This document shows positions 2,976 to 8,755 of a stretch of 64,000 bases of DNA, in pieces. The position numbers were made by a program, and so were the translations under genes. Within the stretch, counting starts at the first letter, position 1; each line of letters begins with the position of its first letter. The stretch is from Cyanobacteriota bacterium. GTDB taxonomy: Bacteria; Cyanobacteriota; Cyanobacteriia; Cyanobacteriales; Nostocaceae. The stretch spans positions 64,001 through 128,000 of the forward strand of contig JBJOKS010000010.1 in assembly GCA_046045965.1 (NCBI GenBank), given 5' to 3'. The notes below the pieces were generated by a model. That model did not search any database. It saw only the letters and a program-made list of their open reading frames with translations, and was not told the DNA's origin.

Positions 2976-3422
2976 TTAGAGTAAAAAATCACTCAAAACT
3001 AAAATCGTTAATTCTGTAACTCGTTTCAACTGAATATCATTAGTTAAGAAAATATCACATTGAGAAAATATAGCTACGGAAATTTGTAAAGAATCTAATA
3101 AAGCTAAATTATATCTAGCTCTTAATTGGGATGCTTGTTTAGCAATTAATTCATCAATTTGTATAAATTCAACATTGACACCAGAAACAATCAAATCAAT
3201 AAAATCCTGTTGTAATTCTGTTAGTCCTAAACGATAGGGATAAACTAGACACTCAGATAATGTGATAGGAGAAGTAACCGCACTTAGTAAACCTGAATCT
3301 ATACCGTGAAAAACATAGTTGACTAAAGACTGATATTGAGGATGATTCTCTACATAATAAATTACTGGTGCTGTATCCAAAAATAATTTTTTACCCTGAA
3401 TTAAATAATCTTCAATGTTCAT
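2976..3422 (-). CDS. PIN-domain (VapC-like) toxin
   Basis: FLDTAPVIY, TLSECL, LLDSLQ, FLTND acidic PIN motifs; overlaps the upstream small gene. Confidence 0.9.
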   Translation of the reverse strand: MNIEDYLIQGKKLFLDTAPVIYYVENHPQYQSLVNYVFHGIDSGLLSAVTSPITLSECLVYPYRLGLTELQQDFIDLIVSGVNVEFIQIDELIAKQASQLRARYNLALLDSLQISVAIFSQCDIFLTNDIQLKRVTELTILVLSDFLL

Positions 3423-3690
3423 AGATATTTCTGAGATTTAATTCCCTATTTTTACTTTCCTCGTTTCTATTTCTGGAAACCCAATTTTGAGCATCTTCAC
3501 TAACTAAAGGATAAGGTGCTTTACCTCTGATTTCTTGCCATTTTCGAGGTTGTTTTTGTTCTATATCATTTGGTTGTGATTGCAGGGATAATGAATCAAT
3601 AAAAATTAACACTTGTTCTTGTTGTGCAGGTGTTAAATTGTCTAGTTTTTCTAAGATAGTTTTTTTATTTTCCAGTGCTGTAGTCATCAT
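3412..3690 (-). CDS. Putative antitoxin (DUF2281-like) of the PIN toxin
   Basis: Small protein (LDNLTPAQQEQVLIFIDSL ... DAQNWV) overlapping the toxin start; GAGGA RBS upstream of ATG 3690. Confidence 0.75.
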   Translation of the reverse strand: MMTTALENKKTILEKLDNLTPAQQEQVLIFIDSLSLQSQPNDIEQKQPRKWQEIRGKAPYPLVSEDAQNWVSRNRNEESKNRELNLRNIYEH

Positions 3691-3760
3691 GAAAATCCTC
3701 ATTATCTGTAAAATACGATCTTCTTTAATTATATGGCTATCGGCTTTTATTTGTAAAGAT

Positions 3761-3999
3761 TTCTAGGATTTGAGGATGTACAGGATGTTATTGAATGATT
3801 ATTTTTTGGAAGTTGGGGATTTTTTTTGTCTGAATCAGGATGTCCAGGATTTGAGGATGTACAGGATGTTATTGGATGATTGTTTTTTGGAAGTTGGGGA
3901 TTTTTCAGGATGTTATTGAATGATTGTTTTTGAATTATTTAAAACATCTAAAAATTACCATCCTGTAAATCCTTTAATCCTGGTTATCCTGATTCTGAC
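3761..3999. repeat. Tandemly duplicated ATCCTG-family repeats closed by an inverted copy
   Basis: CAGGATGTTATTG(A/G)ATGATT(A/G)TTTTT occurs three times in 3781-3931; inverted full copy at ~3959-3999. Confidence 0.8.
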
Positions 4000-4033
4000 T
4001 TAATAATTTTCTGTAACCCTTAAATGTTACAGT

Positions 4034-5530
4034 TTACAAGTCTCGACGCGAGACAAGAGACCAGTACATCTTCGCCACAACAAGAAAGACATCCCGACTC
4101 AAAACCCCAACAACCAGCGGAACAGGGAGGTGGCCTTCTGGTGCTTTTATATCAAAAGTAATATTTTTGTAGTACAACCTTTCTCCTCCTTTTCTCCATC
4201 CTACCTTGTCCCCAAACTTCTGCCAGATGTCTGAGTTATATTCTCTAGTTCCACCCAAACCCTGATAAATTCGTTTCTGAACAGAAAAACCAAACTTACC
4301 ATCACTATATTTTACCCATAACTGGTCAATGGTGCGGAGGTCTGCACAGGGAAAATTATCAATGTGTTTAGAATATAACCAACCTTCCTCTTCTCTTTTC
4401 GCAACTGCTAACATTACTCTTCTAGTTTCTTCATCTGCTTCTTTCCATTTTCCTGCTTTGAGGTAGTTTTGCAGTTTTCTATAGTCCATTCCCACATCTG
4501 ATTTTAATTCTATCTCTTGGTTTTCTTCATTGATAACTTCCACATCATCTTCATAGAATTCTTCTTCTAAATAACTAATATCATCATCTTCATTAAGGCT
4601 ATCGAAGGATGATGAACCAAAAGCAGATTTAAATGCATCTAAATCAAAATTATCATCATAATCTTCCTTTTCTTGGTTATTGGTTGTAAGTAAACCCAAC
4701 AACTCCCGAAACTCCCGTACAGTTTGCGGACGGTTTTGGGGTTCTAACTCCATACCTTTGAGAATAGCAGCATTTACCTTATCGCTAATATTCTGATTAT
4801 ATTTTTGCGGTGGTTGTAAAATCACATCATCTTCAGCGCGATAATTAGCAGGAATGGGAACTCTCAGAGTTAACAAAGTGTACAACGTCGCAGCTAAAGC
4901 ATAAACATCAGTATAATAACCAAAATCTCCCCGTCGTTCATACTGTTCTATGGGTGCATAACCTTCCGTTTTACTCGCAGTCATGCTTTTAATTTTTCCC
5001 GGTTGAAACTCTCGCGCTAACCCAAAATCAATTAATACCGCTTCCTTGGTTTTCTGTCGTAGTAAAATATTATTGGGTTTCACATCCCGGTGTAAAAGTC
5101 CTCGTTCATGAACCACTTCTAACGCTTGTCCGATTTGGTCAATGTAACTCAATGCTTCCGTTTCTGACAAGTACCCATTTTCCGCTGTATATTCTTCTGT
5201 ATATTTTTCTAAATCATCCCCTTCTATATATTCCATGACTATAGCGTGCAGTTTATATTTATCAATATCTTCCTCAAAGTTCGTGTAAACCTTGACTATG
5301 TGGGGATGTTCACATTTAGCTAATGATTTTGCTTCTGCTTTAAACCTATTTTGTCTTTCTTCAAAGTCTGGTTTTTCTCGTTGTTCGCGGTTGAGAGTTT
5401 TAATAACTACGAGTCTATCAAGTCCTGTATCTTCTGCAAGATAGGTTTCACCAAAGCCACCCCCACCGATGACTTTTTTAATGATATACTGTCCGTTCTG
5501 TAGACTGGTGTTAGGTGTCCAAACTTGCAT
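4034..5530 (-). CDS. Ser/Thr protein kinase with acidic linker and C-terminal GUN4-like domain
   Basis: Kinase IGGGGFGETY, HRDVKPNN, DFGLARE; GUN4 motifs DYRKLQNYLKAGKWKEADEET, FPCADLRTIDQLWVKYSDGKFGFSVQK, APEGHLP. Confidence 0.92.
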   Translation of the reverse strand: MQVWTPNTSLQNGQYIIKKVIGGGGFGETYLAEDTGLDRLVVIKTLNREQREKPDFEERQNRFKAEAKSLAKCEHPHIVKVYTNFEEDIDKYKLHAIVMEYIEGDDLEKYTEEYTAENGYLSETEALSYIDQIGQALEVVHERGLLHRDVKPNNILLRQKTKEAVLIDFGLAREFQPGKIKSMTASKTEGYAPIEQYERRGDFGYYTDVYALAATLYTLLTLRVPIPANYRAEDDVILQPPQKYNQNISDKVNAAILKGMELEPQNRPQTVREFRELLGLLTTNNQEKEDYDDNFDLDAFKSAFGSSSFDSLNEDDDISYLEEEFYEDDVEVINEENQEIELKSDVGMDYRKLQNYLKAGKWKEADEETRRVMLAVAKREEEGWLYSKHIDNFPCADLRTIDQLWVKYSDGKFGFSVQKRIYQGLGGTREYNSDIWQKFGDKVGWRKGGERLYYKNITFDIKAPEGHLPVPLVVGVLSRDVFLVVAKMYWSLVSRRDL

Positions 5531-5609: not shown

Positions 5610-5612
5610 GAA

Positions 5613-5880
5613 TGTCTGAATCAGGATAACCAGGATTATAGGATTTTCAGGATGTGATTGATAATTGGTGGTGGGGATTTTTTGATGTGGGTGAAAATAA
5701 CGATGTTGGAAGTTTAAAACCCTATATATATGCGCCCACAGATTCCCACTCATAACATAAGTGTAAAATATTATTTTCGCCTTGTCAAGTCTTAACATAA
5801 CAAAAATATGAAAATACAAAACTTCAGATGGCAACTTACCATCCTGTAAATCCTAAAATCCTGGACATCCTGATTCAAAC
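5613..5880. repeat. Inverted pair of ATCCTG-family repeats (REPIN/MITE-like) enclosing a promoter
   Basis: Forward copy ~5613-5654, inverted copy ~5839-5880. Confidence 0.75.
5760..5788 (-). promoter_or_regulatory. Sigma70-type promoter TTGACA-17nt-TACACT facing the kinase-GUN4 gene
   Basis: Minus strand: TTGACA (5788-5783), 17 nt, TACACT (5765-5760). Confidence 0.65.
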
Positions 5881-6835: not shown

Positions 6836-8755
6836 ATGACAAAACACCCATCTTTGCAAGAACAACAAGGTTACTATCGTTATGATCCTAACAACTTGGA
6901 TCAAAAAGGATATGCAAGGTTATTTCCTTACACTGGGGAAGATGGCGTTATCCGTTATATTTTAGCGAAATTAGGAGAAAATTTAGTAGAACAGGGTAAA
7001 CTTTCCCAACCTTGGACTTTATTACTGAGTCAGTTAGATCAAAAAGTTGCAGAATTAGAGGAAAATTGGTTAAGTATCTCAACTTTATTGGTTGACTGCA
7101 AAATTTTTCAATCAGGATGGTTTAATTTTGATTTACCTCCCAATGAACAATTTAATAGTAGTTATATCCAAGAAAGAAAAAAGTTAATTCAAACAATTTC
7201 CTCAGCTAAAAAAGCTGTTGGAAATGTAGATAAAAATTTACCTCTTCTAACAATAAATGCAGAACAAAGAAAGTTATTTTACCAAGCATTAAAAAATGCA
7301 AATGTTAAAACTCCTGTTATGAGTATCATTCATGAACGGGATGGAGGTTTAAGCGATAGAGAATTTGTCCGTCAAAGGGTAGCAGGTGCTAACCCCACAG
7401 TTATCCGCCGAGTACAAACAAATGATCAAGGTTTGATTCAAGCTTTAGCTACTCAACCTTACAAATTAGCTAATAACGGTGCTGTTGATTTAATCAAATC
7501 TGCCAGTGAAAACCGCTTGTTTATTGCTGACTATCCCATTTTTAAAGATTTGAAAATTACAGACTTACAAACTGGTAAATATGTGGGTAGTCCAATAGCT
7601 TTATTTCATAATACAGAAAAAGGTTTAGAACCTGTACTAATTCAAGTAGAAAAAGGTAGAGTTGTAACTCCAGGAATTACAGGAGAACCAGCAGATAATT
7701 GGATGAAAGCAAAATTATATTTTCAAACTGCGGATGCTACTCATCATGAACTAATTGCCCATTTAGCTTATACTCATTTAGCAATGGAATCCTTATCTAT
7801 TGCTACTTCTAGACAGTTACCAAGTAATCACCCAGTTTATCAATTATTATCTCCCCATTTTAAATTTTTAATTGCTATTAATAACCGGGGAAATAGTATA
7901 TTGTTGTCAGAAGGAGCAGGAATTGATAACTTAATGGCTCCCACTTTGGCAACTTCTTCTAAATTGATGAATAAAGCCTATCGAGAAAAGTCTTTTTGGT
8001 ATTATTCTTTGTTAAATGATATTGAAGTGCGAGGAATAGAACCAAAATTATTACCAGACTTTCCCTATCGGGATGATGCTTTGTTATTGTGGGAGGCGAT
8101 CGCTAAATACACAACTCGTTATTTACAACGCTATTACCCAGACGACAAAGCAGTACAACAAGACATCTATTTACAAAATTGGGCGGAAGAACTAGGCGCA
8201 CCTTTAAACACCCGTCCCAAGTCAGACTTTCCCCAAGCACCCGCATGGTTTCCCAAAGAACTGGTAGCAGCATCAGGAATAGAACCCCAAGAAATACCTT
8301 CCTATCCTCGCGTACCAGGGTTTACAAAAATTGGTAGTTTGCAACAATTAATAGACATTGCAACTATCGTTATTTTTACCTGTGGACCCCAACACGCGGC
8401 TGTTAATTTTAGTCAATACGATTATTTTGGCTATGTTCCTAACGCACCCTTAGCAAATTATAGTCGTCCTGGTACACCAGCTAGTTTAGAGGAAATTTTA
8501 CCACCTCCAGAAAGAGATTTAGAGCAAATGCAATTAACTTTTGCATTGAATGGAATTAGATGGAGTAAATTAGGAAGTTCTGATTTTATTCAATTTGCAG
8601 ATAAAATTGATAAACAAATCTTAGCGCAATTTCAAAATGATTTGTTGGAAATTGAACGCAAAATTAAAGATCGAAATCAGCAGCGTTTAACAAATAGCGG
8701 TGTTGAATATCCTTATCTTTTACCCTCTCGCATTCCCAACAGTATTAATATTTGA
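6836..8755 (+). CDS. Lipoxygenase
   Basis: QRVAGANP, HHELIAHLAYTH, QHAAVNFSQ, FPYRDD, C-terminal PNSINI metal-ligand motifs. Confidence 0.93.
   Translation: MTKHPSLQEQQGYYRYDPNNLDQKGYARLFPYTGEDGVIRYILAKLGENLVEQGKLSQPWTLLLSQLDQKVAELEENWLSISTLLVDCKIFQSGWFNFDLPPNEQFNSSYIQERKKLIQTISSAKKAVGNVDKNLPLLTINAEQRKLFYQALKNANVKTPVMSIIHERDGGLSDREFVRQRVAGANPTVIRRVQTNDQGLIQALATQPYKLANNGAVDLIKSASENRLFIADYPIFKDLKITDLQTGKYVGSPIALFHNTEKGLEPVLIQVEKGRVVTPGITGEPADNWMKAKLYFQTADATHHELIAHLAYTHLAMESLSIATSRQLPSNHPVYQLLSPHFKFLIAINNRGNSILLSEGAGIDNLMAPTLATSSKLMNKAYREKSFWYYSLLNDIEVRGIEPKLLPDFPYRDDALLLWEAIAKYTTRYLQRYYPDDKAVQQDIYLQNWAEELGAPLNTRPKSDFPQAPAWFPKELVAASGIEPQEIPSYPRVPGFTKIGSLQQLIDIATIVIFTCGPQHAAVNFSQYDYFGYVPNAPLANYSRPGTPASLEEILPPPERDLEQMQLTFALNGIRWSKLGSSDFIQFADKIDKQILAQFQNDLLEIERKIKDRNQQRLTNSGVEYPYLLPSRIPNSINI

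Follow-up and report, generated by a model that had tools for sequence, protein, structure and literature searches.

What wrote the end of a kinase-GUN4 gene that looks so unlike the remainder of that gene? The stretch that we analyzed, referred to as the window throughout, comprises 64,000 nt; the features of the locus are collected in Table 1. An earlier note on this DNA had pointed to a tail depleted in adenine, and the count bears this out: the 63 nt of the core (4123–4061) hold 6 A, 8 C, 24 G and 25 T, and none of the 30 codons across 4135–4046 ends in A, compared with 35% of codons gene-wide. The gene itself contains 35% A, the core being its most A-poor part, and binomial tests against the gene's own composition give P ∼4e-6 and 3e-6, values that are uncorrected for the picking of an extreme stretch. 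The two protein endings that had been read from the conserved block behind the core, SRRDL-stop in frame and LASRLVNCNI-stop in a second frame, are both present, and a third usable ending that had been overlooked, SRVETCKL-stop, can be added. Real proteins carry them: among 140 distinct terminal tails, 44, 43 and 36 have these three endings and 17 have others. The hairpin described just past the stop is a perfect inverted repeat in the window, but it does not appear to be conserved as a hairpin: in 44 relatives 72% of the cells are paired and the central pair is kept in 11 of the 44. Covariation beyond shuffles was found in neither hairpin of the cassette segment, RNAalifold predicts no pairs there, and Rfam returned 3 sub-threshold matches in 4 loci.

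Table 1. Features of the kinase-GUN4 locus; positions are those of the window
Feature	Position	Strand	Remark
Ser/Thr kinase-GUN4 gene, 498 aa	4034–5530	−	
Protein kinase domain, aa 15–269	4724–5488	−	Pfam PF00069
GUN4 domain, aa 344–470	4121–4501	−	Pfam PF05419; matches solved Gun4 chains 1z3x and 1y6i
5′ anchor: GHLP codons, final conserved stretch ahead of the core	4124–4135	−	paralog joints stop at 4125
Variable core, 63 nt, 78% G+T	4061–4123	−	
Conserved 3′ block, protein end and stop in three frames	4020–4060	−	stops at 4034–4036 (SRRDL), 4027–4029 (SRVETCKL) and 4020–4022 (LASRLVNCNI)
7-bp inverted repeat CTGTAAC-8 nt-GTTACAG (the hairpin of the earlier note)	4011–4032	.	imperfect dyad in relatives
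Start of the fixed-length segment (62 nt kept); TACCTGGCAC motif and HUH gene missing here	3999–4060	−	L138 among the evidence
Abundant intergenic repeat copy	3959–3998	−	starts at the point where the segment breaks off

The tail is probably, at a rough probability of 0.62, the product of a targeted cassette for diversification that works independently of a reverse transcriptase (RT) and is driven by an HUH nuclease, a reading whose support is comparative throughout. The surroundings of the gene hold several further features. The abundant inverted intergenic repeat lies at 3820–3998, 5610–5650 and 5840–5880; it has 114 strict matches genome-wide, 6 of them in the window, and behind several GUN4 cassettes its start falls at one and the same point. 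On the minus strand we find a gene for a PIN-domain protein together with its small partner upstream, likely a toxin-antitoxin pair (2976–3702), and an FHA-kinase gene (1053–2468); on the plus strand lies an ORF of 639 aa (6836–8755), which may encode a lipoxygenase.

The genome that carries the window (G000) contains 14 GUN4 domain matches. About 10 of these copies have the GHLP anchor and the 3′ block in common and carry unrelated cores; they are the paralogs with conserved flanks and divergent cores for which a genome check had been proposed. On contig C86 three tandem GUN4 domains have endings in different frames. With an exact pattern of the 3′ block, at least 80 loci were collected from GTDB genomes; 60 cores could be parsed from them, of which 58 were used after two with duplicated anchors had been dropped, and a wider parse of all collected loci gave 100 distinct cores. 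When 301 genomes from the phylum were sampled, a degenerate pattern of the block matched in 63 and the reversed control in none. The 100 cores have a median length of 63 nt (range 25–195 nt) and consist of 19% A, 12% C, 37% G and 31% T. Their composition is equal at all three codon positions, and the upstream domain shows the usual periodicity. G+T exceeds 60% in 75 of the 100, the mirror A/C-rich make-up occurs in 6, and the three endings are used in proportions of 43/34/23. The coding frame of the cores is kept clear of stops: they number 10 in 2244 codons there, compared with 121 and 115 in the two alternative frames. Comparison of the 58 cores gave 1653 pairs, of which 24 reach a score of at least 30 (8 in shuffles), and the likeness consists only of low-complexity sequence. 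Copies of the own flank of 12 nt or more were seen in 9 of 100 cores in sense and in 1 in antisense orientation, and internal repeats of 10 nt or more in 14 of 100, compared with 2.7% of shuffles.

How these cores change becomes visible between close relatives. The closest kinase relatives of the window protein (79–87% alike) have tails unrelated to it, as has the copy from the same genus (L087), and members of one 90% protein cluster either share their tail or have an entirely different one. Of the two clusters that hold caspase-GUN4 proteins faced by an HUH gene, one has 14 tails that fall into 12 core families and the other 15 tails in 13 families (15 members sampled in each, out of 162 and 89). 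For ten other clusters, taken irrespective of HUH context, the ratios of core families to tails are 5/15, 4/15, 1/15, 8/13, 4/15, 1/15, 2/7, 2/13, 3/13 and 3/10; HUH adjacency was established for only four members of the first two clusters. Two cores are common to caspase and kinase clusters, so exchange between paralogs explains part of the turnover; the finding also fits an export of finished modules. Judged by sequence comparison, the GUN4 loop DNA is swapped wholesale for unrelated G/T-rich DNA. The proposal that GUN4 tails form a hypervariable module in ligand-binding position, with variation in length and frame, is supported.

Several simple sources of such cores were tried. Phase variation of a simple sequence repeat was rejected as the variants are unrelated sequences and not length alleles of one tract. 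A deamination-type origin (A>G, C>T) fitted 12 stretches taken from 6 cores no better than shuffles, and for a copied genomic source the longest repeats of 10 G000 cores (13–18 nt) equaled those of shuffles (13–18 nt). Against phages the window core gave chance matches only (E 2–8), no viral contig contained the 3′ block, and the 6 plasmid records with the block carry GUN4 or kinase genes only. Cassettes were also seen apart from their usual context: contig C9 of G000 bears an orphan cassette of anchor, core and 3′ block with no remaining GUN4 domain (159338–159504), the block occurs without a preceding GUN4 domain at L019, L031, L062, L077 and L035, and at L035, where the contig begins, a G/T core is directly preceded by a piece of an HUH gene.

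A ligand-binding domain whose gene varies at its 3′ end, as here, is also the arrangement of a DGR, and the earlier note had read the tail as a remote target of such an element, its core being copied from an adenine-rich template by a DGR RT. The composition of the cores resembles the DGR substitution spectrum, in which mismatches at template adenines (n = 229) yield 49% T, 36% G and 14% C. Likewise, all 23 Avd-positive genomes (over cut-off) in a sample reaching from the own genome to the same class also carry the 3′ block, an overlap that may reflect a common lifestyle and large genomes. However, an HMM of 13 DGR RTs found no DGR RT in G000; its best match (E 0.11) was the single RT of the genome, which is retron-like. 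The HMM was used here, as phmmer with a retron query misses the DGR RTs of control loci. Searches of G000 for Avd (PF22296, NF033474) gave 0 matches, and in a genome scan and by blastn the best non-self match was A-rich low-complexity sequence, the same as with shuffles, so that the template-like copy near an RT that the earlier note had suggested looking for was not found; completeness of G000 is 92.2%, which leaves some room for the DGR reading. In other genomes 12 of 20 Avd loci, used as a positive control, yielded TR/VR pairs, those listed being gap-free, A-specific and of CLec type, and the same 20 loci contained 0 GUN4 domains, 3′ blocks or HUH genes. The cassette cores, by contrast, range from 25 to 195 nt and are unalignable, share neither a non-A skeleton nor a codon periodicity, are free in length and frame, and differ among relatives by whole replacement. 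Together with the 40 of 63 block-bearing genomes that lack Avd over cut-off, this largely refutes the classical DGR mechanism, which we regard as very improbable. Beside these searches we noted an RT of retron-like type at L001:1297–2430; the 335-aa gene behind it matches no Pfam model.

The surroundings of the cassette point to a different enzyme. Among 501 ORFs near the 80 block loci collected (flanks of 2.5 kb, some shorter, two loci overlapping) the commonest neighbor is a facing HUH gene of RAYT type, found whole or as a remnant in 44 of the 80 and whole in 12. Starting from the HUH genes instead, GUN4 is faced at 42 of the 49 metagenome loci with 1 kb of room (80 loci taken) and at 19 of 29 such genome loci (30 loci including that of G000), a few of the rows being duplicates; the two sets together give 61 of 78 HUH loci with GUN4 opposite. 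On the other side of the HUH gene GUN4 was found in 0 of 50 metagenome and 0 of 28 genome loci. The distance from the start of the 3′ block to just beyond TACCTGGCAC is 129–130 nt in 48 of 57 loci, and the middle of this segment is poorly conserved. At the level of genomes, an HUH match at E ≤ 1e-40 is present in 23 of the 63 block-bearing genomes and missing in 40.

An RT acting in trans could be combined with this enzyme: the HUH protein would nick, and an RT (DGR RT-Avd, retron or Abi-like) would write the A/C-rich strand. The core composition near the DGR spectrum, the overlap of block and Avd at the genome level and the retron-type RT of G000 could be accommodated in this way. Avd over cut-off is, however, missing in 14 of the 23 genomes with both block and HUH gene, no RT-motif ORF and no recurring polymerase gene was found among the ORFs near the block loci, and the Avd overlap may merely mirror large genomes rich in conflict systems. 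We consider such a hybrid rather improbable.

The HUH gene of G000 lies on contig C1 (172562–173314) and faces a caspase-GUN4 gene behind an EACC1-like gene. It matches Pfam Y1_Tnp above cut-off and NF047646 with 72 bits, below the cut-off of 80 of that model; its HUH and catalytic Tyr motifs NHVH, WE and YIHANP fit the patterns NHVH, W[EQ] and Y[IV]HxNP of RAYT subclass 2.1 in Table 1 of PMC6006769. A sequence profile search of the HUH enzyme against the PDB gave 0 matches, and Foldseek on the predicted model (pLDDT 71) returned TnpA_REP 4ER8 as best match (E 4.7e-6). A Pfam HTH tail was not found. A clamp-like motif GQxxLPW is present in 58 of 60 enzymes that face GUN4, in 11 of 11 that face an unnamed family described below and in 0 of 3 that face cyanobactin precursors; PMC6006769 quotes QL[SD]LF as the consensus of the clamp motif. 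Near the end of the HUH gene (C1:172562–172620; L112, L193) we observed a deletion of ∼31 nt, which places the block at −129 instead of −160. Through this deletion the enzyme, the sole member of its clade in G000, has lost its conserved last helix and has kept its catalytic motifs, so it may be crippled. In related non-GUN4 genes at L137 and L156, the HUH end motif falls right within the 3′ portion, as it would after a one-ended insertion or an adjacent deletion.

The ‘master’ copy of this genome, the one faced by an HUH gene, is thus located on C1, and ∼10 remote copies lie elsewhere. The window tail looks like a remote, frozen copy of the HUH-linked cassette. In accordance with the earlier note, no machinery is found in cis: the window copy lacks an HUH gene, an RT and a template, TACCTGGCAC is absent within 1 kb, and 62 nt of the segment are kept. 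Positions 4020–4164 show a single letter throughout in contigs of four runs from three studies, two of which (X1 and X2) represent one sample, possibly the source sample of the window; contigs lose rare variants, and the stability concerns the main type only. The absence of an HUH gene and the identical core in samples of three studies lead us to the frozen-copy reading. Contig joints running from 4058/4059 to 4125 stem from paralogs with other cores. The proposed check of orthologs and reads thus had two outcomes, with unrelated tails in the closest kinase relatives and no local hypervariability in the population contigs. Writing of the core in trans, as the earlier note supposed, would be conceivable but finds no support in the invariant core of this locus.

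Could the cores arise with no dedicated generator at all? A tolerant loop might drift by slippage on G/T runs and by gene conversion among 10 or more paralogs, the HUH gene being a passenger once inserted behind GUN4. Near-identical HUH loci are informative here. Six loci (L158, L159, L164, L165, L166 and L198) have six different cores, and the HUH genes of five of them show 97–100% nucleotide identity; L185 and L188 combine an identical HUH gene with different cores. Between near-identical HUH loci the GUN4 DNA upstream of the core is only 87–96% alike, which indicates that paralog exchange acts too. These patchy differences, the cores shared by different gene families, the stability of cores in many clusters and in the window population, and the decay of many HUH copies speak for drift and conversion. 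Such a process leaves unexplained the aperiodic, mutually unrelated cores with their three-frame end as well as the fixed segment of 129–130 nt. The linkage is moreover held across HUH proteins that are only 65–90% alike, and related HUH genes face three unrelated families of variable cassettes. Exchange recycles cores and does not make 25 families among 29 sampled proteins. Drift with conversion as the sole source is therefore unlikely in our judgment.

The other targets were examined at further HUH loci. Ten earlier loci without GUN4 face cyanobactin precursors (4), a Nif11 precursor (1), an unnamed family (2) or nothing clear (3), and 32 additional loci face GUN4 (11), the unnamed family (11), cyanobactin precursors (3), a Nif11 precursor (1) or no clear target (6); target families could be assigned for 7 of 9 ORFs submitted. 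The unnamed family (330 aa; L216, L217, L223–L231, L244, L247) has a conserved RDVRVHD end followed by a free, often Cys-rich tail and matches no Pfam or NCBIfam model; in one genome (G288) 9 of 9 HUH copies face it. Cyanobactin precursors are faced at L206, L209, L211, L213, L235, L252 and L253, and Nif11-type precursors at L215 and L243, which are distant relatives. The segments of non-GUN4 targets are only mildly rich in G/T (56% and 60%), and the strong G/T bias is thus a trait of GUN4. In an HUH tree, calculated by a quick method from 80 of 105 rows (22 short loci, 3 duplicates and the Nif11-facing enzymes left out; root not tested), the cyanobactin-facing enzymes fall among those that face GUN4.

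The position of the core within the GUN4 fold suggests what its exchange could bring about. The profile of the cassette GUN4 matches solved Gun4 chains up to GHLP, and a canonical Gun4 copy on contig C8 of G000 continues past this point with LSNQLRGVRVM-ASLLSHPAW. In canonical Gun4, according to PMC1084334, Pro208 and Leu210 extend into the binding palm, Arg214 is essential to porphyrin binding and Arg217, Val218 and Ala219 tune it. Mapped by spacing from GHLP, the core would occupy the end of the alpha6/alpha7 loop including Arg214 and Arg217, and the SLLSRRDL frame would represent the ancestral end. An AlphaFold model of the window GUN4 domain is poor (mean pLDDT 54, residues 99–158 below 50) and uninformative on the tail. 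PMC7159879 and PMC8195603 count GUN4 among the effector domains of conflict systems in cyanobacteria; their relevant passages mention no variability. A change of core would likely alter the ligand of the GUN4 pocket in conflict and signaling proteins.

We propose the following course for an HUH-driven cassette. At a ‘master’ locus, as seen in the loci above, the GUN4 gene faces a RAYT-type HUH gene across the fixed-length segment ending in TACCTGGCAC, and, as comparison shows, the stretch from the GHLP codons to the 3′ block is occasionally swapped whole for new G/T-rich DNA of free length. The enzyme may be held at the TACCTGGCAC motif, possibly at the replication fork via its clamp-type motif, and would nick single-stranded DNA close to the block. 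A sloppy polymerase would then extend the free end largely without a template, slipping on the anchors, before the ends are rejoined. The 3′ block provides a closing helix and a stop whatever the frame, and because it closes the protein in any frame, random core lengths are tolerated; cores with in-frame stops are purged by selection, as the stop counts show. Finished GUN4 modules could be shuffled onto kinases, caspases, TIR and NACHT-type proteins and would mostly be fixed there. The window tail would be such a remote copy, with a truncated segment, no HUH gene in cis and a stable core, the master of the genome being that on C1. More tentatively, and with somewhat less than even odds, a domesticated HUH nuclease could prime untemplated synthesis a set distance away from its own end and so build random GUN4 loops resembling antibody junctions with a three-frame closing segment, its sister clades acting on the precursor cores of cyanobactin and Nif11 type.

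To our knowledge, few targeted diversification mechanisms exist in bacteria. If the HUH reading is true, the cassette represents an undescribed way to vary a sensor protein, and if an HUH enzyme rewrites a sensor loop with untemplated DNA, DGRs are joined by another way in which multicellular cyanobacteria reach an antibody-like diversity of receptors. The hypervariability of prochlorosin and cyanobactin precursor cores, an old question, becomes testable. The cassette offers a compact assay with one enzyme, two anchors, a fixed segment and a three-frame read-out, and G000 allows an internal comparison between one HUH-faced and ∼10 remote copies. We found no description of the GUN4 cassette in the literature on GUN4 variability and DGRs, on RAYT/HUH enzymes in cyanobacteria and on cyanobactins with transposases, which comprised mostly open-access papers; Supplementary Figure 1 on relatives in a preprint on procA (Laurenceau et al., see below) may bear on novelty.

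Among known systems, canonical Gun4, the Mg-chelatase cofactor, shares the domain up to GHLP, and its ASLLSHPAW end (C8 copy) corresponds to the SLLSRRDL frame of the cassette; judged by spacing and the residues given in PMC1084334, Leu210, Arg214, Arg217, Val218 and Ala219 are replaced by the core in the cassette. Cyanobacterial DGRs with remote CLec targets, as presented in PMC7517822, are similar in their 3′ variable segment, their modular ligand-binding domain fused to kinases, caspases and TIR, their many dispersed paralogs and their G/T-biased products. The cassette differs from them by having no RT, Avd or template, by varying in length and frame, and by its GUN4 fold; in the relevant part of PMC7517822 GUN4-like is named only as an N-terminal domain grafted to CLec. 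With RAYT/TnpA_REP subclass 2.1 (PMC6006769) the enzyme shares the NHVH, WE and YIHANP motifs, a size of ∼250 aa and, as predicted, probably the 4ER8 fold, whereas the text on this subclass assigns it no REP or target gene and does not mention GUN4; the missing Pfam HTH tail and the GQxxLPW motif set the GUN4-facing copies apart as well.

Among published cases the procA-tnpA_REP pair comes closest; in it, the same type of enzyme faces procA at a conserved distance and a diversifying recombination has been proposed (Laurenceau et al., bioRxiv 10.1101/2020.03.09.984088). Its authors called the association unique to marine picocyanobacteria and saw no strong evidence either way on causation; PMC10783134, where it refers to the pair, merely cites this preprint. 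Both systems have an enzyme of RAYT group 1/subclass 2.1 type in head-on orientation at a conserved intergenic distance, C-terminal enzyme fragments beside targets, and a diversity confined to one short coding segment with length change. The facing RAYT-type gene is found at C1 and at the 61 HUH loci noted above and not at the window locus; the conserved distance recurs, and the target is GUN4 instead of Nif11-type, the latter occurring only at L215 and L243. The pairs differ in that a lanthipeptide core is the target there and a GUN4 sensor domain here, that small indels accumulate there whereas a wholesale G/T-rich replacement is seen here, and that only the cassette has a conserved three-frame end after its variable part. 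The GUN4 cassette is thus a variant of a proposed, still unproven kind of diversification.
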